This document shows, in pieces, positions 1 to 64,000 of a stretch of 64,000 bases of DNA (position 1 is the first letter of the stretch; every line of letters begins with the position of its first letter). This DNA comes from Bacteroidota bacterium (lineage in GTDB: Bacteria > Bacteroidota > Bacteroidia > UKL13-3). The position numbers and the translations under genes were made by a program. The stretch spans positions 2,019 through 66,018 of the forward strand of contig CANGPW010000002.1 in NCBI GenBank assembly GCA_947456185.1, written 5' to 3'. Below the pieces are notes generated by a model that was given only the letters and a program-made list of their open reading frames with translations, ran no database searches and was not told the origin of the DNA.

Positions 1-62
1 TATGAAGTATGAATGTTAAAGTTTGAAAAAAATAAAAAAATTCATAATTCATACTTTATACT
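1..62. repeat. word-repeat hairpin (tatgaagtatgaatg ... A-rich spacer ... ttcataattcatactttatactt)
   Basis: Inverted arms 1-15 and 41-62 of the catacttcat word family. May continue left of the window. Confidence 0.7.
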
Positions 63-86
63 TAATAATTAATAAAAAAAAAAAGT

Positions 87-452
87 ATGAATTATGTAAA
101 TGATAATAAACCAGAACCTATTAAGGAAAGGAGCTTTAGATTTGCAGTTGAAATAGTAAAATTCTGTATCGATTTAAAATTATTAAAACATTTTGAAATT
201 GCCAATCAATTAATAAGAACTGGAACATCGATTGGAGCTAATATTCGAGAAGCAAATAATGGTTTTAGTAAAAAGGATTTTGTTTTTAAAATGAGTATTG
301 CCCAAAAAGAAGCTGATGAAACCATATATTGGTTAGAAATAATCAATGAAATTGAAAACAACAACGACAAAACTACTTATCTAATTAAAGAAGCAAACGA
401 ATTACTTAAAATTATCCGATCCATTTCAATCAATGCAAAGAAAAATCTGTAA
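87..452 (+). CDS. four-helix-bundle protein (23S rRNA intervening-sequence protein / Avd-like family)
   Basis: 121-aa ORF. Motifs FRFAVEIVKF, LIRTGTSIGANIREA and KDFVFKMSIAQKEADETIYWLEI fit the S23 IVS four-helix-bundle family as I remember it. Confidence 0.85.
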   Translation: MNYVNDNKPEPIKERSFRFAVEIVKFCIDLKLLKHFEIANQLIRTGTSIGANIREANNGFSKKDFVFKMSIAQKEADETIYWLEIINEIENNNDKTTYLIKEANELLKIIRSISINAKKNL

Positions 453-462
453 AATATTCTTT

Positions 463-509
463 CATAATTTATACTTCATAATTTATACTTCATAATTTAT
501 ACTTCATAA
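463..509 (+). repeat. tandem repeat, 14-nt unit cataatttatactt x3 plus a partial unit
   Basis: Read directly from the sequence. The array ends 1 nt before the DegT ATG. Confidence 0.9.
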
Positions 510-510
510 A

Positions 511-1770
511 ATGAAAATACAAATGGTAGACCTCAAAGGTCAATATAAGAAAATAAAAGCTGAAGTTGATGCTGGAATCCAAGAAGTAATTGAAAATGTT
601 CAATTCATTAAAGGTCCACAAATAAAAGTATTTGAAGAAAACTTGGCAATATACTTAAATGTAAAACATGTAATAAGTTGTGCCAACGGAACTGATGCAT
701 TGCAAATTGCTATGATGGCATTGGATTTAAAACCTGGCGATGAGGTAATTTTACCTGTTTTTACTTACGTTGCCACAGCAGAAGTAATTGCCTTATTGGG
801 TTTAACTCCAGTAATGGTAGATGTGGATCCTGATACATTTTGCATTGATACAAATTTGATTGAATCAAAAATAACGCACAAAACTAAAGCCATCGTTCCT
901 GTACATTTGTTTGGTCAGTGCGCCAATATGGATGAAATCATGCGAATTGCAGATAAGCATAACCTATTTGTTATAGAAGACACTGCTCAAGCTTTGGGAG
1001 CAATTTATAATTATGAAGTAGAAATTATGAAGTATGAAAAAAAAGAAAATACCTTCATTCATAATTCATCATTCATAACTCATACTTATTCGGCAGGAAC
1101 AATAGGAAACATTGGAACCACTTCATTTTTTCCATCAAAAAATCTTGGTTGTTATGGAGATGGTGGAGCATTAATGACCAATGATGATGAGTTAGCAAAA
1201 AAAATCAGGATGATTTGTAACCATGGACAGTCTGTTCAATATGTGCATGATATAATTGGAGTTAACTCAAGGTTAGACAGCATACAAGCAGCAGTGCTAA
1301 ATGCTAAATTACCTCATTTGAAAAGTTATGAAACAGCCAGAAACGAAGCAGCAAATTTGTACGATGAATTATTGAGTAATCATCCAAATATTATTATTCC
1401 AAAACGCTATGCACAAAGTTCGCATGTTTTTCATCAGTACACAATAAAAATTATAAATGATGAATTATTTAATGAAAATAAAAAAATTCATCCTTCATCA
1501 TTACCCAATGTGTCGGAAATTCATACTTCATTCAGAGATAAAATTCGTAAGCATTTAGCGGAACGTAATATTCCAAGTATGGTTTACTACCCAATTGAAT
1601 TAAACAAACAAAAAGCATTTGAAAAATTCAATAGTAATAATGATCAATTCCCTGTTTCAAAAATGCTTTGTAAATCTGTTTTATCATTACCAATGCATAC
1701 TGAAATGAATAAAGATATGGTAGTATACATTTGCAAAAATTTATTGGAAATTATTGACACAGAATTTTAA
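511..1770 (+). CDS. DegT/DnrJ/EryC1/StrS-family PLP-dependent sugar aminotransferase, with two extra in-frame segments
   Basis: 419-aa ORF. Motifs: MVDLKGQY start, CANGTDALQIA, EDTAQALGA, Schiff-base lysine region TTSFFPSKNLG, NHGQ, GVNSRLDSIQAAVL. About 40-50 aa longer than typical family members because of repeat-derived inserts. Confidence 0.9.
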   Translation: MKIQMVDLKGQYKKIKAEVDAGIQEVIENVQFIKGPQIKVFEENLAIYLNVKHVISCANGTDALQIAMMALDLKPGDEVILPVFTYVATAEVIALLGLTPVMVDVDPDTFCIDTNLIESKITHKTKAIVPVHLFGQCANMDEIMRIADKHNLFVIEDTAQALGAIYNYEVEIMKYEKKENTFIHNSSFITHTYSAGTIGNIGTTSFFPSKNLGCYGDGGALMTNDDELAKKIRMICNHGQSVQYVHDIIGVNSRLDSIQAAVLNAKLPHLKSYETARNEAANLYDELLSNHPNIIIPKRYAQSSHVFHQYTIKIINDELFNENKKIHPSSLPNVSEIHTSFRDKIRKHLAERNIPSMVYYPIELNKQKAFEKFNSNNDQFPVSKMLCKSVLSLPMHTEMNKDMVVYICKNLLEIIDTEF

Positions 1771-1800
1771 TTCAAAATATTCGTAGAGTCTTAAAATTAT

Positions 1801-2109
1801 CTAGCCATTGCAAGCATCCTCGCTAGCAATATATGGTTAGAGACGTTGCATTGCAAGGTCTTTTTTTTGTTTAAAAGTTAGTTTCCTACCCTCATTTCGA
1901 CAAGCTCAATGACCGTTGTAATTTCAGTCATTTCGAGCGTAGTCGAGAAATAACAAACAAGTTCTCGACTAAGCTCGAACTGACATACCTAGCAGGTTTG
2001 GATTTGCAATCCAAATCATTTAGTTGAACTGAGATTGATGAAAACACACAACCTCGGGCAAAGATCCACCCCGTCAGTTAGCCAACTGACAACCCTCAAG
2101 AGAGGAATT
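1801..2109 (+). repeat. multi-hairpin module, copy A (extended form: terminator + core 1886-2109)
   Basis: Near-identical by eye to 3079-3374 and, from 1886 on, to 5236-5458. Contains hairpins H0 (1927-1984) to H5. Confidence 0.9.
1842..1868 (+). terminator. intrinsic terminator after the DegT gene (part of module copy A)
   Basis: gacgttg-cattg-caaggtc hairpin followed by T8. Confidence 0.6.
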
Positions 2110-2385
2110 ACATACTTCATCATTCATAAATCTCATATCACACTTCTCATCTCTCAATTCAAAATTTATACTTCATCAATTATAATTAGATTGCTTTCCC
2201 GCTTAGGCTGGACAGGCAGTGCCTCGCAATGACGGGTAAATTTAAATCTTTTTTCATACTTCATCATTCATACTTTCCCAATTTGTTGGGACTTTATACT
2301 TCATAATTTTCAATTCATCATTCCCAAAATTTTAGTCCATTATCGTTTATTTAGGTATTTTTATTTTATAGAAGTTTAACTACAT

Positions 2386-3021
2386 TTGTATGTGGGAACC
2401 AATTTAAAATATGAATTACACAATGTCATTTCAGGAAAGAGCCAAGTTAGGCATGGAGGAATTATCCAAACAATTGCCAATTACCTTAACCAAGGCGCGA
2501 GAACAAGCCCAAAAACTGAATATAGCAAGCAATACAAAGCTGAAGAAACAGAGAGGTTAAAGCTATTTATTGAAGGAAATAATCTCTGGGTTGAGATAGA
2601 TTTAAATCAATATGTGAGTGAAGGTGCCGAGCAAAAAGTTTATTTGAAAGACACCGCATCTGTTTATAAGCTGAATGATTCAATATACTATGCCAGTTGG
2701 CATGATTATTTCATTAACTTATTACTACATAATTTTTTTTTCTCGGATACTGCCTATCAATTAATTGGATTTGCAAAAGTGGAAGATGTTTTATTTGCAG
2801 TAGTGGAACAAGCCTTTGTGATCAATACTGAATCAACAGATTTAAATCGGGTAAGGCGCTTTCTGTCAGAAAATGGTTTTCAAAATATAAAGAACAACGA
2901 CTACTACAATCCTAGTTTAGGTATTATTATTGAAGATTTACATGATGAAAACGTATTGACTAAAAACAATATTTTATACTTTATTGATACTGTATTTTAT
3001 ATCACAGAGAATTTTCATTAA
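2386..3021 (+). CDS. hypothetical protein with protein-kinase-like motifs (small atypical kinase fold?)
   Basis: 211-codon ORF with a non-ATG start (TTG 2386 or GTG 2392). Gly-rich SEGAEQKVY followed by VYK, D184-LHDE-N189 (D-x4-N) and D201 in FIDT, spaced like the catalytic loop and metal-binding Asp of protein kinases. Own terminator at 3033-3055. Confidence 0.55.
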   Translation: MYVGTNLKYELHNVISGKSQVRHGGIIQTIANYLNQGARTSPKTEYSKQYKAEETERLKLFIEGNNLWVEIDLNQYVSEGAEQKVYLKDTASVYKLNDSIYYASWHDYFINLLLHNFFFSDTAYQLIGFAKVEDVLFAVVEQAFVINTESTDLNRVRRFLSENGFQNIKNNDYYNPSLGIIIEDLHDENVLTKNNILYFIDTVFYITENFH

Positions 3022-3032
3022 TTAGTTTTTTG

Positions 3033-3055
3033 TCCCAACTCGTTTGGGATTTTTT
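3033..3055 (+). terminator. intrinsic terminator after the kinase-like ORF
   Basis: tcccaa-ctcgt-ttggga hairpin followed by tttttt. Confidence 0.65.
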
Positions 3056-3078
3056 GTATAAAGTAGTGTAGTGATTTT

Positions 3079-3374
3079 CTAGCCATTGCAGGCGTCCTCG
3101 CCAGTAATATTTATAGAGACGTTGGCATTGCAACGTTTTTTTGTTTAAAATTTAGTTTACTACCCTCATTTCGACAAGCTCAATGACAGTTGTAATTTCA
3201 TTCATTTCGAGCGTAGTCGAGAAATAACAAACAAGTTCTCGACTAAGCTCGAACTGACGGTTTGGATTTGCAATCCAAATCATTTATTTGAACTTGAGGT
3301 TGATGAAAACACACAACCTCGGGGAAAGTTCCACCCCGTCAGTTAGCCAACTGACAACCCTCAAGAGAGGAATT
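3079..3374 (+). repeat. multi-hairpin module, copy B (extended form; core 3160-3374)
   Basis: Direct repeat of copy A. Lacks the 10-nt atacctagca segment between H0 and H1. Confidence 0.9.
3119..3142 (+). terminator. second terminator-like hairpin (part of module copy B)
   Basis: acgttg-gcattg-caacgt followed by T7. Confidence 0.55.
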
Positions 3375-3513
3375 ACATACTCCAAAATTTATCATTCATA
3401 CTTCACCTACTTTGAATTTTTGTTACTCCGCATTTCGCACTTTCCTCAAAATTCATCATTCATAATTCATAATTTAGCCCTACATTCGCCCCTTTTAAAA
3501 AAGTAAATAATAA

Positions 3514-5145
<1,632 letters not shown>

Positions 5146-5168
5146 TTTTTTAAATCATCAATATAAAA

Positions 5169-5197
5169 GCCAAATGTGAAAACGTTTGGCTTTTTTT
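5169..5197 (+). terminator. intrinsic terminator after the ABC-F gene
   Basis: gccaaa-tgtgaaaacg-tttggc followed by T7. Confidence 0.75.
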
Positions 5198-5235
5198 GTT
5201 TTATAACCATTCATCTGATATTAGCTATTGGCACA

Positions 5236-5458
5236 CTACCTCATTTCACAAGCTCAATGACCGTTGTAATTTCAGTCATTTCGAGCGTAGTCGAGAAATA
5301 ACAAACAAGTTCTCGACTACACTCGAACTGACATACCTGGCCGGTTTGGATTTGCAATCCAAATCATTTATTTGAACTTGAGGTTGGTGAAAACACACAA
5401 CCTCGGGGAAAGTTTTACCCCGTCAGTTAGCCAACTGACACCCCTCAAGAGGGGAATT
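5236..5458 (+). repeat. multi-hairpin module, copy C (core only)
   Basis: Same order of hairpins H0-H5 as copies A and B, with single-base differences. Confidence 0.9.
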
Positions 5459-5655
5459 TACTTCGAAATACTTTTATACTTTATACTTTCCCGATGTGTC
5501 GGGATTTCATCATTTCTCAGTGCTCATCTCTCATGTCTGGATTCGGCAAGCTCACCAAGACAAAATCTATTCATCTTTACCACTTCATCATTTATACTTC
5601 ATACTTTATAATTCATAATTCATTCTTATCTTGCCAGCCCAATATTTAACATTGA

Positions 5656-6711
5656 ATGGCAGAAAAATTTGAAATAGAAACTACTCAATTAGAAAAAGTT
5701 TCGGTGCATCAAGTAGGGAATAAAACCAATAACGAAGACCTCATTATATCGAAGGATTTGTTGGATTTAAGCGATGGGAAATTGAAAGATTTATTGATGA
5801 AATTTTTCGTTTCATCGTTCAATAATCCTGAGTTTTATAACTTCAGTTTTAGCAATAACGATTTTACTTTGAACCCTATTTATAGTTATGCTTTGCAAAT
5901 GTTTGAACATGGCAGTGCTTTTCATATCAATAGCATCCATATTGCAAAACATTTATTTGAACTTTCTACTCATCCACAAATAAAAAGTGGTGATTTGTTT
6001 ATTGCTTATTTTGCCAATATTCAAGTGGAAGATGAAGACGTGGAAGCCATTGGAATTTTTAAATCGGAAAACAAATACGACTTTTTAAAATTGAACCAAA
6101 GCAATAACGTTTTTGATGTAAGTTATAATGATGGAATTAACATAGATAAGCTGGACAAAGGTTGTTTAATATTTAACACCAATGCCGATCAAGGTTATAA
6201 AGTTTGTATCATTGACAAAGGAAATAAAGGCAACGAAGCACAATATTGGAAAGATAGTTTTTTACAACTAAAACCTTGTAGCAATAATTATAACCACACC
6301 AAAGAGTTTATGAATATTGCCAAAAACTTTGTGACTAAACAATTGAACGAAGAGTTTGAAGTTAGCAAAGCTGACCAAATAGATTACTTGAACCGCTCAG
6401 TAGATTATTTTAAAACCAACGATACTTTTGACAAAAAAGAATTTGAACAAGCTGTGTTTAAAGATGAAGGAGTAATAGAATCGTTCCGCACCTTTGATGA
6501 AGCATACCGAGTGAGCAATGAATTGGATATTTCCGATAGTTTTGATATATCGAGTCAGGCGGTAAAAAAGCAAGCCAGAATTTTTAAAAGCGTGCTTAAA
6601 TTAGATAAGAATTTCCATATTTATATTCACGGAAACCGAAATCTTATTGAACAAGGAGTGGAAGAAGATGGACGTAAGTTTTATAAAATATATTTTAAAG
6701 AAGAGGAGTAA
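5656..6711 (+). CDS. nucleoid-associated protein, NdpA/YejK-like family
   Basis: 351 aa. The N-terminal LEKVSVHQVGNKTNNE motif and overall length are typical of Bacteroidota NdpA-like proteins. Confidence 0.7.
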   Translation: MAEKFEIETTQLEKVSVHQVGNKTNNEDLIISKDLLDLSDGKLKDLLMKFFVSSFNNPEFYNFSFSNNDFTLNPIYSYALQMFEHGSAFHINSIHIAKHLFELSTHPQIKSGDLFIAYFANIQVEDEDVEAIGIFKSENKYDFLKLNQSNNVFDVSYNDGINIDKLDKGCLIFNTNADQGYKVCIIDKGNKGNEAQYWKDSFLQLKPCSNNYNHTKEFMNIAKNFVTKQLNEEFEVSKADQIDYLNRSVDYFKTNDTFDKKEFEQAVFKDEGVIESFRTFDEAYRVSNELDISDSFDISSQAVKKQARIFKSVLKLDKNFHIYIHGNRNLIEQGVEEDGRKFYKIYFKEEE

Positions 6712-6901
6712 ACGTGCTTTGTAAGTTTAAAATGCGAAGTGCGAAGTGACAAAAATGCGAAGTGAATGAAATGCCTGAATTGGCAATGGGCAAATAGCAA
6801 TAAGCAATTGACAATTTTCTTCATTATTAACTTAATCATTTGAATTTTACTTCGCAATCGAAATTCCGCACTTCGCAATCAGAAAATAATTTCGCACTTC
6901 G

Positions 6902-8050
6902 TTAGAACAATTTATTCTTATACGTAGGTGTAAATCCTAAATGTTGGTATGCTTTTTCGGTGGCTTCTCGTCCGCGAGGTGTGCGCATCAAAAATCCTTC
7001 TTGAATTAAATAAGGTTCATAAACTTCTTCTATTGTTCCACCATCTTCACCAATGGCAGTTGCCAAAGTATTTAATCCAACAGGTCCGCCTTTGAACTTT
7101 TCAATCAAGGTTTTTAAAATCCTGGAATCCATTTCATCTAAACCTTCACTGTCTACGTTCAATGCATTTAAGGCAAATTGAGCAATTTCTAAAGTGATTG
7201 TTCCATCGCTTTTTACTTGTGCAAAATCACGGGTTCTTCGCAATAAAGCATTCCCAATTCTGGGCGTTCCTCTACTCCTACGTGCAATTTCCCATGCGGC
7301 CTCTTCATCAATGATGGAATTCATAATGGTAGAGCTACGCTCAATAATGGTTTTCATTAAAGCTTTGTCGTAATACTGCAAACGAGCGTTAATTCCAAAC
7401 CTAGCACGCAAAGGAGAAGTTAATAATCCGGAACGAGTGGTTGCACCAATTAAAGTAAATGGTTCTATTTCTAACTGAATACTGCGCGCATTTGGCCCGC
7501 TATCAATCATAATATCTATTTTATAATCTTCCATAGCCGAATATAAAAACTCTTCCACTACCGGACTTAAACGATGTATTTCATCAATAAAAAGTACATC
7601 GCCTTTTTCTAAATTAGTTAATAAACCTGCTAAGTCACCCGCTTTTTCTAAAACAGGGCCACTTGTTGTTTTTATATTTGCGCCTAACTCGTTGGCTATA
7701 ATTATACTTAAAGTAGTTTTTCCCAATCCAGGAGGGCCATGCAAAAGCACATGATCCAATGATTCGCCACGTTGTTTGGCAGCTTGAACAAATATTTTTA
7801 AATTCTCAATGGTTTTTTCCTGACCTGTAAAATCATCAAATAATCGTGGACGTAACACACGCTCCAATTCTTTGTCAACATTGGTTAAATTACTTTCTTC
7901 AGGATCTAAATTTGGATTTCTCACAAGGGCGAATATAGTATTTTTTTCTTTTTGGTGAAAAGGATGATGAGTTGATGGAGTTGTTGATGTGTTGAGGTGT
8001 TGAGGTGTTTGAGTGTTGAGGTGTTTATGTGTTGAGGTGCTTATTGCCAA
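6902..8050 (-). CDS. ruvB: Holliday junction branch migration DNA helicase RuvB (true start probably GTG at 7924)
   Basis: [13 protein letters not shown], Walker [10 protein letters not shown], Walker [22 protein letters not shown]. The first 42 codons of the ORF are encoded by tandem word repeats. Confidence 0.95.
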
Positions 8051-8890: not shown

Positions 8891-10429
8891 ATGAATAAAC
8901 GTAAACAATTACAAGAATTACGCGACCAATCACTTTTAGGTGGTGGAGTTGACCGCATTGCTTCACAACATAAAAAAGGAAAATTAACTGCAAGAGAACG
9001 CATTCACTTTTTATTTGATGAAGGGAGTTTTGAAGAAATTGGTGCTTTTGTAACACATCGTTCTAAAGATTTCGGAATGGAAAAACAACAGTTTTTAGGT
9101 GATGGCGTAATTACAGGATATGGAAATATAAATGGTAAATTAGTATATGCTTTTTCTCAAGACTTTACAGTATTTGGAGGTTCACTTTCAGAAACACATG
9201 CGGAAAAAATTTGTAAATTAATGGACTTAGCTATGAAAAATGGTGCGCCATTAATTGGCTTAAATGATAGTGGTGGCGCACGTATTCAAGAAGGGGTAGT
9301 TTCATTGGGCGGTTATGCAGATATTTTTTATAAAAATACCATGGCAAGTGGCGTTATTCCACAAATTTCGGCCATCATGGGACCATGTGCTGGTGGAGCA
9401 GTATATAGTCCTGCCATTACCGATTTTATAATGATGGTAGAAAATACAAGCTATATGTTTGTAACCGGACCAAACGTAGTAAAAACAGTAACACACGAAG
9501 AAGTTTCAAGTGAAGATTTAGGAGGCGCTTCGGTTCATTCAACTAAAAGTGGTGTAGCTCATTTTACCGCTGCCAATGAAATTGATTGCATCAATCAATT
9601 GAAAAAATTAATCAGTTATATTCCTGAAAATTGTGAAGAAAAAACTCCTGATTACACCTATGAATTGGCAGATGAAATGAGACCTAAATTAGCAGATATT
9701 ATTCCTGCAAACGCCAATCAACCTTATGACATTAGAGAAGTAATTAGTGAAGTAATAGATGAAGAAAGTTTTTATGAAGTTCATAAAAATTATGCTGAAA
9801 ACATTGTGGTTGGATTTGCTCGTTTGGCAGGAAGAAGTATTGGAATTGTAGCTAATCAACCAGCATATCTAGCGGGAGTTTTGGATATTCATTCATCGCA
9901 AAAAGCAGCACGTTTTGTTCGTTTCTGCGATTGTTTTAATATTCCACTTTTAGTGTTTGAAGATGTTCCAGGATTTTTGCCAGGAACGGATCAAGAATGG
10001 AATGCAATTATTACCAATGGTGCAAAACTATTATACGCATTTTGCGAAGCAACAGTTCCTAGAGTTACCGTTATTACCCGTAAAGCATATGGTGGCGCTT
10101 ATGATGTAATGAATTCAAAACATATTGGTGCTGATATGAATTTTGCTTGGCCTACAGCCGAAATAGCAGTGATGGGTGCAAAAGGTGCTGCTGAAATTAT
10201 TTTCAAAAAAGACATTGACAAAGCCGATGACCAAGTTGCTGCATTAGCTGCAAAGGAAAAAGAGTATGCCGATATTTTTGCAAATCCATACCGTGCCGCA
10301 GAACGTGGATTCATTGATGAAGTTATTTTTCCGGAAGAGACACGAAAAAAGCTCATCAAAGCGTTTAAGATGTTAGAAAATAAAATGGTGAATTTACCAA
10401 GAAAAAAACACGGAAATATTCCGCTATAA
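8891..10429 (+). CDS. acyl-CoA carboxylase carboxyltransferase (beta) subunit, propionyl-CoA carboxylase / methylmalonyl-CoA carboxyltransferase type
   Basis: 512 aa. Motifs: [42 protein letters not shown]. Confidence 0.9.
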
Positions 10430-10473
10430 ATTTTGAATGTTAGATGTTGAATGTTGAATTAGTTTTAAAAATG

Positions 10474-10519
10474 CATTTCGACATGCTCAATGTCCGCGGT
10501 CGTTGAGCTTGTCGAAACG
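10474..10519. repeat. 46-nt palindromic element (catttcgacatgctcaatg-tccgcggt-cgttgagcttgtcgaaacg)
   Basis: Imperfect hairpin. The reverse complement matches 60385-60430 at all but 2 positions by my count. Confidence 0.85.
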
Positions 10520-10780
10520 AATATAGTTTATGCGTCAATAAATTTCGGGCGTTAATGGCAAATACTCTTTTAAGTTAAGAAGATGCTTACAGCATGACTT
10601 CATTTTAGGTTTTAACTTCTGTTAACTTTTAAAACTGTTTTTTAGTAAACTATGAAAAATATAAAAAAAGAAAATATTGTGCAAACTGTTAATACTAATA
10701 AATTAACTGTTACTAAAAAACTAAGTCTTGCTGAAGGCAAAGAATTGGCATTTCAAATAATTGATAAATTAGATAAAAAT

Positions 10781-12556: not shown

Positions 12557-12703
12557 GAAAAAAGTTGTTGGTCAGGAGACACAACAACGGACGTCTGCGT
12601 TTATCTGATCCCAACTAATCGGGATGCGGGAAAAAAGTTGTTGGTTAGGAGACACAACAACGGACATCTGCGTTTATCTGCTCCCAACTAATTGAGATGC
12701 GAG
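12557..12703 (-). repeat. tandem duplication, 2 x 73 nt, each unit ending (on the minus strand) in a hairpin plus T-run
   Basis: Units 12557-12629 and 12630-12703 are near-identical. Minus-strand hairpins are gttgttg-11 nt-caacaac followed by tttttt. Confidence 0.85.
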
Positions 12704-12718
12704 AAACTTGGAACAAAA

Positions 12719-14449: not shown

Positions 14450-14536
14450 AATTAATTGTTAAACAAAAATAAGGCTTATAAACAAAAAAGCCTCATCAAA
14501 TAATTTGACAAGGCTTTTTTATAAAAAAAGTAAAAA

Positions 14537-14869
14537 CTATTTCTTTTTACCAGCTGCTTTCTTAGGAGCTGCTTTCTTAGGAGCTGCTTTCTTAGGAGCT
14601 GCTTTCTTAGGAGCTGCTTTCTTAGCAGGAGCTGCTTTCTTAGCAGGAGCTGCTTTCTTAGGAGCTGCTTTCTTAGGAGCTGCTTTTTTTGGAGCTGCTT
14701 TCTTAGGAGCTGCTTTCTTAGGAGCTGCTTTCTTAGGAGCTGCTTTCTTAGGAGCTGCTTTTTTTGGAGCTGCTTTTTTTGCTGGAGCTGCTTTCTTAGC
14801 TGCTACTTTTTTTGCTGGTGCTGCACTTTTTGTAGGTGCTGCTTTTTTTGTTTTTTTAGCTGTTGCCAT
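14537..14869 (-). CDS. histone H1-like lysine/alanine-rich DNA-binding protein
   Basis: 110 aa, almost entirely KKAAP/AKKAAP repeats encoded by an 18-nt tandem DNA repeat. The AAFLG ORF on the + strand is its mirror image. Confidence 0.7.
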   Translation of the reverse strand: MATAKKTKKAAPTKSAAPAKKVAAKKAAPAKKAAPKKAAPKKAAPKKAAPKKAAPKKAAPKKAAPKKAAPKKAAPAKKAAPAKKAAPKKAAPKKAAPKKAAPKKAAGKKK

Positions 14870-15411
14870 AATTATTTAATTATTTAATTTGATTACGAAA
14901 ACAAAGTTATGATAGTACATTATAAAGTCAAGCATTTGAATTTATAATTTATGATTTTTATAAAAAAAATAAAAATATATCTGTTAATAAGTGAAAAACA
15001 AAAGCATGAAGATATCAGTATTTACTAACAACTATGAAAATATTTTTTTTATAAAAAACTGTTATTAACTATTGAAAAAATTATGAACTTATTATAAACA
15101 AATCTATAAGCTATAAAGTATTTTTATTAATATAGTTATATATCAATACCTGTTAACTACTGTTTTCAAAAGCCCTCACAAAGATTGATATAAAAAATTT
15201 TAATGAAAATAAAAAATAAAAAAATAAAATGTATTTCAAACTTTATATAAAATTTAAAACAATTTTATATAAAATAAGTAGTATAAATTATACATATTGA
15301 TAATAAAATAATAAAAATAAATTATAAAATGTAACATGAATATAAAATAAATTATTTGTAATGTTGAACCAAGATAATTATAAGAGCGTAATTATATATT
15401 TATAACAAATT

Positions 15412-19688: not shown

Positions 19689-19725
19689 ATAAAAAAACGA
19701 CTTCTTAATAAATTAAAAAGCCGTT
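19689..19725 (-). terminator. terminator-like hairpin after rnpB
   Basis: On the minus strand: aacggcttttt-aatttatt-aagaagtcgtt with two G-U pairs that only form on this strand, followed by a T-run. Confidence 0.55.
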
Positions 19726-19730
19726 TTTTT

Positions 19731-20122
19731 TGCAAAACTATAAGCCGGGTTCTGTTTTATTTCAACTTTCGAAGAAACAAATTCTATCATTTATCTTGCC
19801 ATGTTATCACTAACATAATCTATTGCAGTCTACCCATTGTACATCAAAGCGAGCAACTTTGTGAGCCTAAACTCGGTACAACCTATTTGACCTTGCAACG
19901 CATAAGGTTTACCTTGCAATAAATGTTACCATTTACCCGGTGGTCTCTTACACCACCTTTTCACCTTTTCCTAAATTTTTAAAAAAACTCAGGTAGTTTA
20001 ATTTTCTTTAGCACTGTCTGTCAATTAATATTTACAATAATTGCCTACCCGTTAGGTAGTATGCCGCTCTGTGTTGCCCAGACTTTCCTCATTACATTAG
20101 TAACGCGATAGAACATTTTGCA
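19731..20122 (-). ncRNA. rnpB: RNase P RNA, bacterial type A
   Basis: The reverse complement contains GAGGAAAGTCTGGGC (P4 5' strand), GGTGAAAAGGTGGTGTAAGAGACCACCGGG, GCAAGGTCAAATAGG and ACAGAACCCGGCTTA (P4 3' strand). P1 pairing is tgcaaaa/ttttgca, followed by a terminator. Confidence 0.95.
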
Positions 20123-20236
20123 TGGCAAATGTAATTTATTTATAGTTTGAAATATTAAAAATTATGTAAAGTACTAAAATAGTGTTTTTAAATTTGTCAA
20201 AATGTTATAAATTGCCTTACTAATTAAATCCAAAAT

Positions 20237-27175: not shown

Positions 27176-27335
27176 AAAAAATGCGAAATGTTGAGGTTTT
27201 TAAGTTTTGAAGATCTTTTTGCATATTGCTTCACGCCCTGCGTGACAAGTATTGCTAATTGCATCCTTCGACAAGCTCAGGATGACATATTTCCTATTGC
27301 CCATTTCCCATTGCATATTGCTAATTGCATATTGC

Positions 27336-27731
27336 TTATTTCAATCCTTCAAATAGTTTATCTAGCTTTTGCTTTTCAATAATTTTTTGACCTTGTTCGC
27401 CTTCGGCAATGATTCTATCGCCAACTTTGGCTATAAAAGTGCAAATAATTTCATTTTTCTGAATGCTTTTAACAGTTGTAGTAAATTCAACAATGGATCC
27501 TAACAAAGCAGGACTTTTGTGGCTAATTTTTAAAAAAGTGCCAATACCTTCTTCTTGGTCTTCTTTCATTTCCAACACAAATAATCGGCAAGCCCATTCT
27601 GCGTCTCTTCCTAGTGCAAAGGTGGCATAAACGGGATGAACCAAACCGTCATTAAATGAAGCGCAGTCGGCTTTTTCCACTAATTTACTAAAGTATTTTT
27701 GGCTGCCTATTTCAAACAAATCAATAATCAT
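27336..27731 (-). CDS. hotdog-fold thioesterase (FlK-like)
   Basis: 131 aa. The VHPVYATFALGRDAEWACR and IGTFLKISHKSPALLGS pattern resembles fluoroacetyl-CoA-thioesterase-type hotdog proteins. Confidence 0.65.
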   Translation of the reverse strand: MIIDLFEIGSQKYFSKLVEKADCASFNDGLVHPVYATFALGRDAEWACRLFVLEMKEDQEEGIGTFLKISHKSPALLGSIVEFTTTVKSIQKNEIICTFIAKVGDRIIAEGEQGQKIIEKQKLDKLFEGLK

Positions 27732-38739: not shown

Positions 38740-39177
38740 TAAAATACTTCTGCCAATATGTGGGTTTTACAAAATTGGCGGTTCATTGCAACACATCAAC
38801 ATTTAAGATCAAATATTTGATAAATTTTTTTAACCGTCTGACGCCTTGCCACGCATTTCCGCTGCGCAATCGTCTGACGTTAGTTGAGTGACAGGTTATT
38901 TTAAATATACCTTTTATAAGAAAAACAATATTCTGACAATGGTATCTCCCCTGTTTTCAGTATGGTTCGGCAGGCTCACCATGACACAAAACAATGGTTT
39001 CTCATCTCTCGAACTCTCATCTCTCGAACTCTCGAACTCTCATCTCTCAACACCCACTTTTCATCTTTCACTTCTCAAAATTCATACTTCATAATTTATA
39101 CTTCAAAATTTCTTTGTCACCCTGAGTGGAGTCGAAGGGCAACATCCAAAATTCAACATTCAAAATTCAACATTACT

Positions 39178-45137: not shown

Positions 45138-45206
45138 GTCACATTGAGCGGAGTCGAAATGTTTTTTAAACGAGTGTATTAATTTCTCGACTCCGCTCCA
45201 AATGAC
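45138..45206. repeat. related palindromic element (gtcacattgagcggagtcgaaatg ... atttctcgactccgctccaaatgac)
   Basis: Two arms of the same gtcat/gagc/gtcga word family separated by 20 nt, downstream of the FAD oxidase gene. Confidence 0.7.
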
Positions 45207-59509: not shown

Positions 59510-59645
59510 CTATAATTTTTTATTGAAAGATTGAAAAATTACAAGATTAAAAGATTTTTGATGGCTCTTTATATCTTGTCTTCTTTCTAACTTTGTAATT
59601 TTTGTAATTTTTTAATTTTGCAATCTTTCTAATTTTTGTAATTTG

Positions 59646-60430: not shown

Positions 60431-60475
60431 GCTTCCCATTAATAAACTAAATTGGCTTTAGATTTCAATTTTTCT

Positions 60476-60539
60476 TAATCTTTCAATCTTTCTAATCTTT
60501 CAATCTTTCTAATCTTTCAATCTTTCTAATCTTTCAATT
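60476..60539. repeat. tandem repeat, 17-nt unit taatctttcaatctttc x3 plus a partial unit
   Basis: Read directly from the sequence. Overlaps the mnmH stop codon (60509-60511). Confidence 0.9.
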
Positions 60540-62206: not shown

Positions 62207-62938
62207 CTATGGTCTATTAACTAGCAACTCTTCCACTTTTTCCCAATTCAAAACGCTCCAAAAAGCTGTTACATAATCGGCACGTTTGTTCTGATATTTC
62301 AAATAATAAGCATGTTCCCAAATATCTAATGCTATGATTGGAGTGCCCAAATCTTTTACAATTCCTGTCATTAACGGGTTATCTTGATTAGGAGTAGAAA
62401 TAATTTTTAATTTACCATCTTGTTGAATTAACCAAACCCAACCGCTTCCAAATATTCCCATGGCAGCTTTGGTAAAAAACGTTTTGAAATTTTCTAAACT
62501 TTCAAAGTTTTCAGTGATTATTTTCAATACTTTTTCACTTGGAGTAGTATTGGTTTTTAACAATGTCCAAAATAACGAATGATTATAATGTCCGCCTGCA
62601 TTATTGCGAATAGTAACTTGTATATCCTCAGGAATATGATTGATATTTACCAGTACATCATTCAGATTTTTATAGTTCCAACCAGCAATTTTTGCTTTGA
62701 CTTCATTCAGTTTATTTACATAAGCTTGATGATGTTTTGTATAATGAATTTCCATGGTTTGCTTATCAATAAATGGTTCTAATGCATCGTAACTATAACT
62801 AAGTGGCGGTATAGCAAAATCGTTTTCCAAACTAAGCAAAGCATCGGTAATTTGAGCTTCTGTTTTTTGAGTATTTAATAGGGTTGAGCCTGCTAATATG
62901 GCTGCTGATTTTACAAAGGTTTTTCTTGATATTTTCAT
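62207..62938 (-). CDS. sod: Fe/Mn superoxide dismutase with an N-terminal export signal
   Basis: MKISRKTFVKSAAILAGSTLL signal from the ATG at 62938, then HYTKHHQAYV and DIWEHAYY metal ligand motifs. The upstream 64 codons of the ORF are repeat sequence. Confidence 0.9.
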   Translation of the reverse strand: MKISRKTFVKSAAILAGSTLLNTQKTEAQITDALLSLENDFAIPPLSYSYDALEPFIDKQTMEIHYTKHHQAYVNKLNEVKAKIAGWNYKNLNDVLVNINHIPEDIQVTIRNNAGGHYNHSLFWTLLKTNTTPSEKVLKIITENFESLENFKTFFTKAAMGIFGSGWVWLIQQDGKLKIISTPNQDNPLMTGIVKDLGTPIIALDIWEHAYYLKYQNKRADYVTAFWSVLNWEKVEELLVNRP

Positions 62939-63062
62939 GATATTAAATAAAAAACAAATGTATTCATTTATGTTTAAGTATGAAGTATAAATTATGAATG
63001 ATGGAATGAGAGGTGAGCGATGAGAGGTAAGAAAGTATGAATGATGAAAGCTAAACCATTTA

Positions 63063-63120
63063 GTCAGTTTGATCAGAGTTGAGAATAGGTTTGTTGTTTC
63101 TCGACTTCGCTCGAAATGAC
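63063..63120 (-). repeat. partial module copy (H0-type 58-nt hairpin only)
   Basis: The reverse complement reads gtcatttcgagcgaagtcgagaaacaacaaacctattctcaactctgatcaaactgac, the same architecture as H0 of copies A-C but with a degenerate 3' arm. Followed by catacttcat and ctcatc words before sod. Confidence 0.7.
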
Positions 63121-63210
63121 CAACAAACATCTACCAACAAACATTAACCACAACCAACAACCCGAAACTCGTAACTCGACAACTATCAACTGACAACTAA
63201 AAAATAAAAA

Positions 63211-64000
63211 CTATCTCAACAAAGAAACTGTTCCATGTAAATGGTATGTTTTTGTACTAATTCCAATGGCATCTATGATATAAAAATAAACGCCTTCAGG
63301 GCAAGTATCACCATCATATGTTCCATCCCAACCAGGATTGATATTATTGGTTTCATATAATAAACTTCCCCAACGGTTATAAATTTGCATATGGTAATTG
63401 TTTATTCCATAAGAACGAATGGTAAAATAATCATTTAAGCCAAGGCCATCTGTGTTTTGAGGAGTAAATACATTTGGTATAAAAATGGTTTCTTTCTTAA
63501 GTACTGTGATGTCTTTAAATATTGAATCGCTACAACCTTCATTGTTGCTTACTTTTAACCATGTTCTATATACATTGACATCAATAAATTCAAATAATGG
63601 ATCTTTTAAATTACTGCTTGAATTTTTCAAATCACCAAAACTCCAATAATACTTAGTTGCATTCGAACCAGTAAAAGTAAAATAAACTGTGTCGTTAATA
63701 TAAGGATTAGCTGGAATAAATGTAAAATTTGCAGTAGGTTTAGGATAAACTAACATGGTTTTAAAACTACTGTCGGAACAGGTTCCATTACTTATTAAAT
63801 ATTTCACTATAAAACTTCCAACAGTAATGGGATTATACTGATTTCCTAACACGTTTGTGCCTGTATACACTCCACCAGCTTCTATTGGCGTAAATATTGC
63901 TTTGGGATCATTTACACAAAAAACAGAATCAGTGGTAGTAAATGTAGCATCTGGCCTTGGTTTTACTGTTATATTTTTACTCAATGAATCAACACAAAGT
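63211..64000 (-). CDS. gliding-motility-associated C-terminal domain (T9SS type B sorting domain) protein, 5'-truncated by the window edge
   Basis: C-terminus IPNVFTPQNTDGLGLNDYF...IYNRWGSLLY...WDGTYDG...GVYFYII...GTVSLLR, preceded by PKD-like repeats. The reading frame stays open to position 64000. Confidence 0.8.
   Translation of the reverse strand, partial: LCVDSLSKNITVKPRPDATFTTTDSVFCVNDPKAIFTPIEAGGVYTGTNVLGNQYNPITVGSFIVKYLISNGTCSDSSFKTMLVYPKPTANFTFIPANPYINDTVYFTFTGSNATKYYWSFGDLKNSSSNLKDPLFEFIDVNVYRTWLKVSNNEGCSDSIFKDITVLKKETIFIPNVFTPQNTDGLGLNDYFTIRSYGINNYHMQIYNRWGSLLYETNNINPGWDGTYDGDTCPEGVYFYIIDAIGISTKTYHLHGTVSLLR

Follow-up and report, generated by a model that had tools for sequence, protein, structure and literature searches.

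Insert 1, a cassette of 28 codons in a WbpE/DegT-type sugar aminotransferase gene of a Bacteroidota bacterium, shares its words and layout with neighbouring intergenic repeats and lies at one of two recurrent hot spots for which empty alleles exist. The stretch analysed, referred to below as the window, comprises 64,000 nt of a metagenome-derived contig (GCA_947456185.1, contig CANGPW010000002.1, forward strand, positions 2,019-66,018). The cassette of the window differs from that of the orthologue L081, in the relative L004 one cassette is present in two genes, only one frame in six is open across insert 1, and its silent sites are conserved above the level of the gene. These observations are shown directly. 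On balance, we lean towards the reading that insert 1 is an ORF-less cassette of heptamer words resembling an intervening sequence (IVS), which yields a disordered extension of the loop when translated and whose maintenance operates at the nucleic-acid level, the mechanism being inferred.

The cassette, its words and its host gene

The features concerned are listed below (R, purine-rich; Y, pyrimidine-rich).

1-62, + strand: word hairpin upstream of the PF05635 gene, with R arm 1-24, A-rich spacer and Y arm 37-60 (24 nt, 79% complementary), truncated by the window start
87-452, + strand: PF05635 gene (23S rRNA intervening-sequence protein, four-helix bundle), type A, Pfam E = 2.3e-21, with arrays of the same words on both sides
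461-509, + strand: perfect tandem Y-word array, TTCATAATTTATAC x 3.5, closing the PF05635 bracket on the 3' side and serving as 5' leader of DegT (TRF score 98, 100% matches)
511-1770, + strand: WbpE/DegT-type PLP sugar aminotransferase gene, 419 aa, containing both inserts (Pfam, PDB, homologues)
1009-1092, + strand: insert 1 cassette, 28 codons (N167-S194) in place of about 9 codons of the native loop (orthologue baseline, L081 swap boundary, frames, silent sites)
1007-1038, + strand: R arm of insert 1, words TATGAAG/TAGAAAT; inverted repeat, 32 nt, 78% complementary
1039-1057, + strand: A-rich spacer (loop) of insert 1, 19 nt, conserved in 8 orthologues
1058-1089, + strand: Y arm of insert 1, 32 nt, words TTCATAA/TTCATCA/TTCATAA/CTCATAC; inverted repeat, nearly invariant in 8 orthologues
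1444-1533, + strand: site-2 segment with insert 2, 30 codons where the baseline is 7; hairpin arms 1449-1473 and 1478-1502, extra Y-words 1520-1533
2116-2306, + strand: further intergenic Y-word runs downstream of DegT
3388-3472, + strand: Y-word runs upstream of an ABC-F gene
5567-5627, + strand: Y-word array upstream of an NA37 gene
39081-39101, + strand: isolated intergenic Y-word run
62978-63048, - strand: intergenic Y-word runs in the leader of a superoxide dismutase (SOD) gene

The heptamer pattern (T/C)T(C/T)AT(A/C/T)(A/C/T) forms 17 runs in the window, compared with 3.0 +/- 1.3 in Markov simulations; the runs include 41-61, 461-509, 1025-1085 and 1451-1533. A period of 7 or 14 was reported by TRF at 461-509, 1012-1038, 1057-1084 and many intergenic sites. 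Both the words and the succession of purine arm, A-rich loop and pyrimidine arm are common to insert 1 and the intergenic elements 1-62 and 461-509, and the latter array is complementary to the R arm of insert 1. The run at 62978-63048 was rejected as a case within a coding sequence, the ORF call at 62207-63130 being over-extended and the true SOD start lying downstream. The PF05635 gene has an R array on one side and a complementary Y array on the other, and such brackets surround all PF05635 genes examined except one (L073). Three types of PF05635 protein pair with three word families; type A was found together with the same words in five genomic contexts (the window and four others), and the length of the arrays is polymorphic in L093-L095.

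In addition to its inverted arms, insert 1 contains internal 14-nt direct repeats (1009-1034 and 1055-1082), and its 19-nt loop lacks the PF05635 ORF. The predicted local RNA hairpin is modest (MFE -12.8 kcal/mol, z = -2.3), with 7 of 200 shuffles folding equally well; across orthologues it is weak (z = -0.7 to -2.1), and the changes are uncompensated. A conserved local RNA structure is therefore not claimed for insert 1, given variation that is too scant and uncompensated and these weak z-scores. An idealised word hairpin has stops in all six frames, against the single open frame of insert 1; degeneration of the second R-arm word, the most variable spot among orthologues, avoids an in-frame TGA.

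No second copy of the whole 84-nt cassette is present in the 64-kb window. An exact 22-mer from insert 1 had one match among JGI metagenome contigs, in another DegT orthologue, in a search of low power, as the known JGI carriers lie outside that collection. The 54-aa concatenation of both insert peptides returned zero matches and missed even the DegT proteins, probably owing to word-index and low-complexity limits. Rfam covariance models applied to positions 1-6000 yielded no family and one sub-threshold chance match, and no rRNA was detected in the window; the host of insert 1 is a protein-coding gene, not helix 25 or 45 of 23S rRNA.

The ORF at 511-1770 matches DegT_DnrJ_EryC1 (PF01041) over its full length (E = 4.5e-110) and the WbpE structure 3NYU (HMMER, E = 1.2e-89) in three aligned pieces, the two inserts forming the breaks. 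Such inserts inflate protein lengths and break alignments, which makes them relevant for annotation. No variation was seen among 45 homologues at the PLP lysine K210, at D157 and Q160, or in the SFFPSKNLG motif around K210, one nearly invariant position of the motif excepted. Purifying selection on the gene is strong, with amino acid identity of about 85-90% and third-position identity of about 0.66. Because the frame is open, the catalytic residues are invariant and purifying selection is strong, the gene is called functional; it is intact and not a pseudogene, a conclusion inferred from sequence alone, and translation of the insert lacks experimental proof.

In the 3NYU alignment, query residues 168-197 remain unaligned opposite chain residues 167-172. 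AlphaFold gave residues 171-188 of insert 1 a pLDDT below 50, between strands 165-170 and 189-194; residues 323-338 of insert 2 form a similar low-confidence excursion (pLDDT < 50). Insert 1 is thus predicted to leave the protein as a low-confidence excursion from a surface beta-hairpin, a structurally tolerant segment located just before the strand that runs to the Schiff-base lysine.

A preceding sequence-only reading had described two inverted arms around an A-rich spacer at 1009-1088; this held, with the cassette defined at codon level as 1009-1092 and the hairpin found to be degenerate. Its statement that the architecture equals that of the element at 1-62 held as well (arms 79% complementary, R arm, A-rich spacer, Y arm), as did the read-through without stop codon or frameshift, since ORF 511-1770 is open. 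The claimed length of about 30 residues against about 10 in normal DegT proteins was also upheld, the spacing between the GA and AG motifs being 30 residues in the window and 11 in insert-free orthologues, with the amendment that about 9 native codons were replaced and the insert is not a pure addition. The surface loop for which it suggested a test is supported by the AlphaFold prediction only.

Orthologous sites and conservation of the cassette

Among the 120 closest DegT clusters surveyed, site 1 holds variable cassettes of 17-74 aa in 97 and 12 or fewer residues in 15, and site 2 is expanded in 40. The solved WbpE structure is also without insert 1, and other lineages carry unrelated site-1 cassettes of 14-74 residues. 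Both hot spots adjoin the most conserved motifs of the enzyme, EDTAQALGA...AGTIG...SFFPSK and STHVFHQYT. Cassettes in other genomes consist of genome-specific heptamers that form strong hairpins (L011 -89.9, L002 -49.2 and L012 -36.1 kcal/mol), whereas the site-1 expansions of L007 and L008 are direct heptamer arrays without an inverted partner. At site 2, close relatives carry at least three small palindromic elements that are unrelated to one another. A PLP aminotransferase can thus take up 20-60 residues of arbitrary low-complexity sequence in a loop of its catalytic core, which is useful for protein engineering.

Over 513-1000 and 1101-1770 the window and L081 share about 99.5% identity, and yet their site-1 cassettes are unrelated, as are their PF05635 cassettes; the difference is clean, with the swap boundary at about 1000-1095. 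L004 has a cassette of about 80 nt twice, in frame each time, once in a WbpB-like gene and once in DegT; the two copies are about 90% identical, loop included. The WbpB gene has a hot spot of its own, common to L004 and L007. These WbpB cases were found by a generic scan of ORFs for hairpins with a purine arm and a pyrimidine arm, which is insensitive to degenerate copies and misses the inserts of the window. The absence of a second copy in the window and the restriction of the JGI 22-mer match to DegT mean that the mobility of this particular cassette is inferred from the relative L004. The same insert 1 cassette was assembled independently in at least nine contigs from different samples. Its variants partly track the gene tree (L086 with L088, L085 with L087), which fits vertical inheritance under constraint better than recent spread; conservation boundaries at the insert are sharp, and identity does not rise in the flanks. 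Natural empty, filled and swapped alleles, one cassette in two genes and many cassettes at two loops of a structurally solved enzyme are features that make the system testable.

At third codon positions, identity is 0.96 in insert 1 and 0.66 in the rest of the gene. The cassette has 21 degenerate codons, of which 19 do not vary, whereas the same codons in the rest of the gene predict 10.1 +/- 2.0 (P about 2e-5); silent sites in the cassette are about twice as conserved as in those codons elsewhere. Composition was rejected as the cause: two-fold codons ending in A or T are generally more conserved, but this explains only about half of the excess. Silent sites that vary less than the coding sequence around them are the sign of a function at the nucleic-acid level or of a homogenising process, as yet not understood.

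The sequence-only reading left open whether insert-free alleles exist; they were found in 15 of the 120 clusters and in solved structures. A segment ancestral across the phylum, which would have refuted that reading, is ruled out by the unrelated cassettes of 14-74 residues that other lineages carry at the same place, and a pseudogene is ruled out by the catalytic residues invariant in 45 homologues, translation not having been shown experimentally. As to the word family in other coding sequences, word hairpins within those of the 64-kb window are confined to inserts 1 and 2 of the same DegT gene. The scope of the earlier description, a single insert, was extended to two hot spots, strain-level swaps, a link to PF05635 and conserved silent sites.

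Proposed origin and rival explanations

In the reading that we favour, insert 1 would be an ORF-less copy of an inverted-repeat family built of tandem 7-nt words in the order R arm, A-rich spacer, Y arm, the same family that in these freshwater Bacteroidota supplies the arrays of gene leaders and the brackets of PF05635 genes. The bracket layout corresponds to the classical IVS layout, an inverted-repeat stem with an ORF in its loop. The cassette would have overwritten the tip of a surface beta-hairpin in a functional WbpE-type aminotransferase and would persist by being translated as a disordered extension of that hairpin. Its arrival is inferred to have involved the copying or exchange of a dispersed element, be it by template switching, illegitimate recombination or site-preferring insertion, and the open frame may then have been selected. 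At the protein level the cassette may be a tolerated passenger, its words being held by the same putative nucleic-acid-level force as the word arrays. This force could be binding by the cognate PF05635 protein, RNA or DNA pairing between arrays, or gene conversion among copies. The insertion mechanism remains inferred, because the window encodes neither a transposase nor a reverse transcriptase nor a RAYT, and the junctions of 10 loci show no target-site duplication. The last result, together with the lack of a transposase in the window, also led to rejection of a MITE model. A REP/REPIN-RAYT system was rejected in view of words without the GTAG/CGTC tag and no Y1_Tnp match among ORFs of at least 110 aa in the 64-kb window. 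Retrohoming of the DGR type was considered because PF05635 is the Avd family, and was rejected: the window encodes no reverse transcriptase, and the substitutions are not adenine-specific.

A less likely rival is a cis-regulatory RNA, in which the R arm within the coding sequence pairs with the Y array of the DegT leader or with other arrays of the operon and controls translation initiation, mRNA processing (e.g. by RNase III, as in rRNA IVSs) or stability, the peptide being a by-product. It is supported by the conserved silent sites and by the predicted duplex of leader and insert, which is far stronger than the local hairpin (-34.5 vs -12.8 kcal/mol). Moreover, leader and insert words switch family jointly between the window and L081, with cognate duplexes of -34.5 and -30.6 kcal/mol and crossed ones of only -9.7 and -11.3 kcal/mol, and a role in post-transcriptional regulation has been suggested for heptamer arrays directly 5' of start codons (PMC4679880). 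However, the family-A insert follows a family-B leader in L086 and L087 and stands without any word leader in L082 and L088, and in all four the insert is equally conserved; the differing patches of the window and L081 lie only 490 nt apart, so within-species linkage can explain the joint switch, and many orthologues function without any insert. Homing or cassette exchange, by which trans-acting machinery would recognise DNA beside the conserved DegT motifs, install or swap hairpins and spread them horizontally into the same site of diverged orthologues, appears unlikely. In its favour are the position of both hot spots beside the most conserved motifs, which is typical of inteins and homing introns, the sharp conservation boundaries without a rise in flank identity, the clean swap between the window and L081, and the varied occupation of site 2, where close relatives carry at least three unrelated palindromes. 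The dipeptide YT (TAT-ACY) also occurs once or twice per insert-free orthologue (six proteins), only at the two DegT sites, both sites having it in five of the six. Against homing stand the lack of a candidate enzyme nearby, insert variants that partly follow the gene tree and an adjacent PF05635 gene that diverges at an ordinary rate, while a filter for insertion-tolerant loops, with a local supply of arrays, can explain the recurrence without targeting. The YT motif is absent at the WbpB hot spots, and as a target motif it is striking but post hoc; it is retained only as a lead.

A third explanation, an ordinary lineage-specific low-complexity loop arising by local replication slippage and unrelated to dispersed repeats, is very improbable. 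The low-complexity character of the segment, its internal 14-nt direct repeats and the L007 and L008 expansions, which are direct arrays without an inverted partner, would agree with it. It does not account for insert words that are those of the intergenic arrays, the palindromic layout, the different family at the same site in L081, where DegT is 99.5% identical outside the cassettes, or one cassette in two genes of L004, and a 7-nt period is not expected from in-frame slippage. Finally, an assembly artefact or a decaying gene can be excluded almost entirely. The contig derives from a metagenome, and repeats are prone to misassembly, but the at least nine independent contigs from different samples speak against an artefact, and the intact frame, invariant catalytic residues and strong purifying selection against artefact and decay alike.

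Beyond the preferred reading of a tolerated, IVS-like cassette, a bolder one can be offered only as a possibility. PF05635 proteins and their flanking heptamer arrays may form a protein-specific repeat system, each type cognate to its own words, with ORF-less cassettes actively installed, exchanged or maintained at defined loops beside the catalytic motifs of conserved enzymes. If this is true, it would define an unrecognised class of selfish or regulatory elements in rRNA and protein genes, and the S23p/four-helix-bundle family would gain a function in binding or mobilising heptamer words. The bracketing of PF05635 genes by cognate heptamer arrays in itself links 23S rRNA IVSs, orphan 'four helix bundle' genes and heptamer repeat arrays.

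Comparison with known systems

The 23S rRNA IVSs of Coxiella, Leptospira and Salmonella (PMC4990558) resemble the elements described here in having an inverted-repeat stem that encloses either a PF05635 ORF or a short loop, few hot spots in conserved genes, sporadic and variable occupancy and suspected horizontal transfer. In Coxiella, the IVS combines a terminal stem, an S23p ORF and a variable number of purine heptamer repeats (PMC4990558), and variable heptamers adjoining stem or ORF are likewise found at the elements of the window. Classical IVSs, however, occupy helices 25 and 45 of the rRNA, and RNase III cuts them out without religation, whereas the ORF-bearing unit of the window (1-509) sits between protein genes of an operon, and the ORF-less insert 1, located within a coding sequence, is inferred to require translation instead of excision.

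The heptamer arrays of Cyanobacteria, Beggiatoaceae and some Bacteroidetes (STRR; TAACTGA repeats, MacGregor 2015) are mostly intergenic and often placed just 5' of start codons (PMC4679880). They share with the present family the tandem 7-nt words, the mainly intergenic location, a strain-variable copy number and an occasional presence in ORFs. They differ in being described as direct arrays, with in-ORF cases at protein termini or in hypothetical proteins (PMC4679880); paired inverted arrays, in-frame enzyme hot spots and an association with PF05635 are not described in that work. REP/REPIN-RAYT systems and MITEs (PMC3116915, PMC3733652) also consist of non-coding palindromes that are short and abundant; a dedicated protein is believed to mobilise them in trans, and it co-varies with the repeat family. 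The words of the window differ from them in being heptamers without the GTAG/CGTC tag, without a Y1 transposase in the window and without terminal inverted repeats plus target-site duplication, and the PF05635 protein associated with them, a four-helix bundle, is not known to have catalytic activity. Inteins and homing introns are similar in their sites beside the most conserved enzyme motifs, their sporadic distribution and an evolution unlike that of the host gene; insert 1 differs from them in having neither splicing domain nor endonuclease, in comprising only 28 codons and, as is inferred, in staying in the mature protein.

The closest parallel is offered by the Rickettsia palindromic elements (RPEs), which are reported to be short palindromes inserted in frame in conserved protein genes, translated and surface-exposed, and present also between genes (Ogata et al. 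2000; Claverie and Ogata 2003). RPEs form families of about 100-150 bp with a defined consensus in an obligate intracellular alphaproteobacterium. Insert 1 is likewise a palindrome that keeps the frame of a conserved protein gene and is read through, and it lies in a segment that AlphaFold alone predicts to be surface-exposed and tolerant. It differs in its length of about 84 nt, its tandem 7-nt words, the strict purine/pyrimidine polarity of its arms and its free-living Bacteroidota host, and the Bacteroidota cassettes recur at two loops, in many word families, with strain-level swaps and a link to PF05635. No description of in-frame colonisation by palindromic repeats in Bacteroidota was found in the literature searched, in agreement with the sequence-only reading, which knew of no such precedent. 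In-frame palindromic colonisation has essentially one textbook case, that of Rickettsia, and in the favoured reading insert 1 is a new variant of this Rickettsia-type colonisation, in free-living Bacteroidota and recurrent in related members of the phylum.

Anatomy of the host gene and insert 1

The G+C content of the window is 31%, and three features follow one another from its start:

87-452: PF05635 gene ("23S rRNA intervening-sequence protein"), 121 aa
461-509: perfect tandem array of TTCATAATTTATAC, 3.5 copies
511-1770: 419-aa ORF, DegT/DnrJ/EryC1 aminotransferase (E = 4.5e-110)

Among solved structures, the ORF is closest to that of Pseudomonas aeruginosa WbpE (3NYU, E = 1.2e-89). The HMMER alignment with WbpE was possible in three pieces only, and query residues 168-197 and ~321-341 are without counterpart in the solved structure. 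These two stretches correspond to insert 1 and to a second insert (site 2). The sequence-only reading had described an inverted word-repeat at 1009-1088 with the layout of the element at 1-62, and this observation was confirmed. The inverted repeat at 1007-1089 comprises 32-nt arms (78% complementarity) made up of runs of 7-nt words around a 19-nt A-rich spacer, and it shares its layout with element 1-62. The single hairpin is modestly above chance (-12.8 kcal/mol, z = -2.3), and runs of the word family are strongly enriched in the window (17 observed vs about 3 expected). In terms of codons, the cassette occupies 1009-1092 (N167-S194), where about nine native codons have been replaced, not supplemented.

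Across 45 homologues there is no variation at the catalytic lysine K210 (in SFFPSKNLG), at D157 or at Q160. The amino acid identity of DegT (~85-90%), along with a third-position identity of ~0.66, indicates purifying selection, and the possibility that the gene is a pseudogene was therefore not borne out, its expression being inferred. Insert 1 is open in one frame out of six, whereas a hairpin of canonical words has stops in 6/6 frames. An in-frame TGA would arise from the canonical word precisely at the second purine word, which is degenerate in insert 1 (TAGAAAT or TAGAAAG, not TATGAAG) and varies more between orthologues than any other position. In the AlphaFold model (mean pLDDT 75, pTM 0.80), residues 165-170 and 189-194 are predicted as strands lengthening a beta-hairpin, while pLDDT falls below 50 at the tip of insert 1 (171-188) and at insert 2 (323-338); the proposed surface loop thus held in the prediction. 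The intact selected gene, the open frame and the model together strongly support translation of the insert, which is very likely but inferred, not shown experimentally.

Hot spots, inferred exchange and silent-site conservation of the cassettes

The comparison covered the 120 orthologue clusters nearest to the window gene (65-100% identity). Insert-free alleles, whose existence had been left to be checked, do occur: their GA-to-AG segment has 11 residues (xYTFSDGTVKK) vs 30 in the window. Site 1 is 17-74 residues long in 97/120 clusters, and site 2, with a baseline of 7 residues, is expanded in 40/120. Both fractions are upper-biased, because the ranking favours insert-sharing relatives. The insert sequences are unrelated from lineage to lineage at the same site, so an ancestral segment, which would have refuted the insertion, is not supported. 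At the DNA level, nearly all inserts consist of genome-specific heptamers, arranged as a purine-rich arm, a spacer and a pyrimidine-rich arm, and some form very stable hairpins (-89.9, -49.2 and -36.1 kcal/mol in the related contigs L011, L002 and L012). A few inserts (L007, L008) consist of heptamers repeated directly, with no inverted counterpart, and at least three distinct small palindromic elements are found at site 2 in close relatives. The Tyr-Thr dipeptide (TAT-ACY) occurs exactly twice in each of the insert-free orthologues P0094, P0106, P0078, P0114 and P0116 (~376 aa), both copies marking the left edges of the two hot spots, and its codons are similar to the family-A word TATAC. The link is post hoc and fails at the WbpB hot spots.

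The DegT gene of contig L081 is ~99.5% identical to that of the window over 513-1000 and 1101-1770, yet its site-1 cassette is entirely different, belonging to word family B (GAAATGAG / CTCATCTC) rather than family A (TATGAAG / TTCATAC). The PF05635 gene upstream in L081 has 23% identity to that of the window and is flanked by family-B arrays. Two patches, 490 nt apart, therefore switch word family together. This joint switch is reflected in the predicted leader-to-insert duplexes, at -34.5 and -30.6 kcal/mol for the cognate pairs (window, L081) and -9.7 and -11.3 kcal/mol for the crossed pairs. The coupling is not absolute: in L086 and L087 the family-A insert is accompanied by a family-B leader.

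Heptamer-word hairpins were also found in frame within other coding sequences, the WbpB-like oxidoreductase genes:

L004 383-471
L004 959-1041
L007 699-793

One ~80-nt cassette of L004 lies in frame in both the WbpB-like gene and DegT site 2; the copies are ~90% identical, spacer included, without similarity outside the cassette. This is direct evidence that the cassettes are dispersed elements colonising several genes. L004 and L007 share a WbpB hot spot, after IEFEDSGV, with different cassettes in each. No second copy of the window's own cassette was found within the 64 kb, and among JGI contigs an exact 22-mer matched only another DegT gene.

Eight orthologues sharing the window-type insert 1 were used to assess silent sites. 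Outside the insert, their DNA is ~84% identical, with a third-position identity of 0.66; inside, the two values are 95% and 96%, respectively. No other part of the gene is as well conserved as insert 1, and conservation drops sharply at its boundaries. Of the degenerate codons whose amino acid is invariant, 19/21 in the insert show no difference among the eight sequences, vs 71/253 elsewhere (Fisher P = 1.8e-8), and four-fold sites are invariant at 6/6 vs 12/89. A codon-identity control gave 10.1 +/- 2.0 expected against the 19 observed (P about 2e-5). The few changes in the insert are mostly non-synonymous, uncompensated in the hairpin, and track the gene tree in part; the adjacent PF05635 gene shows ordinary-gene divergence. 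Insert 1 is thus not evolving as coding sequence, and its words may be either constrained at the nucleic-acid level or homogenised.

Other repeats and features of the window

A composite repeat of ~210 nt occurs in three successive intergenic regions (1900-2109, 3174-3374, 5248-5458), each copy holding the hairpin GTCATTTCGAGCGTAGTCGAGAA / TTCTCGACTAAGCTCGAACTGAC (1927-1984, 3202-3257, 5275-5332) and followed by pyrimidine-word heptamer arrays. Further, related copies are found at 10471-10522 and 45138-45206. The related TTCGACAAGCTCAATGAC repeat is seen at 10471-10522, and a peptide echo of it (RQAQGD/RQAQDD) fills DegT site 1 or 2 of other orthologues. This genome is generally rich in heptamer arrays. 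The remaining features are:

2386-3021: Kinase-PolyVal domain protein (PF18762, E = 6.5e-63)
6733-6774, 10429-10459, 27289-27340, 39000-39174, 63119-63213: period-7 or -14 intergenic arrays of other word families
7978-8039, 59584-59644, 60463-60538: period-8 or -9 tandem arrays GAGGTGTT, TTTGTAATT, TTTCAATC
12557-12706: intergenic 73-nt tandem repeat, 2.1 copies, 92% identical
14537-14869 (-): lysine/alanine-rich (AAPKK)n protein, 110 aa; 15-nt tandem repeat x16 (14552-14799)
19725-20124 (-): bacterial RNase P RNA class A (Rfam, 227.6 bits), the only above-threshold Rfam match in the window

The Kinase-PolyVal gene is directly downstream of DegT, with repeat-filled intergenic regions on both sides, and no further polysaccharide genes follow DegT at this locus. 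The array at 7978-8039 lies within the 65 aa that the ruvB ORF call adds N-terminally to the RuvB_N domain; this extension is probably non-coding. The (AAPKK)n protein has a histone-H1-like appearance, and the opposite-strand ORF 14505-14879 over this region (that ORF only) had no Pfam match.

PF05635 units and the probable origin of the cassette

About 19 PF05635 genes in 7 genomic contexts could be examined. All except that of L073 are preceded by a purine-word array and followed by a complementary pyrimidine-word array, and three protein types pair with three word families:

Type A (at least 59% identity): GTATGAR / YTCATAC words
Type B: TGAGA / TCTCAT words
Type C (L090): TACGAG / CTCGTAA words

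Type-A genes are spread over five contexts (wbpD-wbpE, wbpB-wbpD, kinase-mutase, hypothetical-beta-lactamase and the window). Within 1-509 of the window, the gene lies between the word hairpin/purine arm 1-62 and the perfect pyrimidine-word array 461-509. In L081 and L086, the orthologous slot contains another PF05635 type, 23% identical, whose word family is different; in L082 and L088 it contains no gene. Word-array lengths are strain-variable: in L093, L094 and L095 (2885-3250) the PF05635 gene is identical, the length of the downstream pyrimidine-word array differs by sample, and in two of them a GC-rich palindromic insertion is nested inside that array. In L090, a PF05635 unit occupies both gaps separating wbpB, wbpD and DegT/wbpE:

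L090 1774-2139: type-A PF05635 gene, between wbpD and wbpE
L090 2949-3326 (-): third PF05635 type, in the wbpB-wbpD gap, with TACGAG / CTCGTAAC words on either side

The interpretation of the sequence-only reading, an in-frame repeat insertion into DegT, held. A dispersed heptamer-word inverted-repeat cassette, kin to IVS-type units (IVS, intervening sequence), would have overwritten a permissive surface hairpin. Selection would have kept it open, with translation into a disordered loop, and its constancy would be due to the same process, whatever that is, which preserves the word arrays. A regulatory role of the cassette by pairing with the leader is one possibility. The account of an overwriting cassette is the favoured and likely reading; the route of insertion or exchange has not been identified. 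No transposase, reverse transcriptase or RAYT is encoded in the window, and the cassette has no target-site duplications. That a new protein-plus-repeat system is involved is credible, but only as an unlikely, minority reading.

In the literature searched, heptamer arrays outside rRNA were nowhere linked to PF05635 genes, and in-frame hairpins were not described for Bacteroidota. Heptamer direct repeats are known from some Bacteroidetes, Cyanobacteria and Beggiatoaceae (PMC4679880). The in-frame colonisation of genes is like that of Rickettsia palindromic elements, and the array-bracketed PF05635 genes match the architecture of the classical 23S rRNA IVS. The Coxiella IVS comprises a terminal stem, an S23p ORF and, beside it, variable-number purine heptamer repeats (GACAGAT) (PMC4990558). 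By analogy, insert 1 would be an ORF-less unit of this kind. However, the rRNA IVS is cut out, whereas insert 1, lying within coding sequence, must be translated instead.
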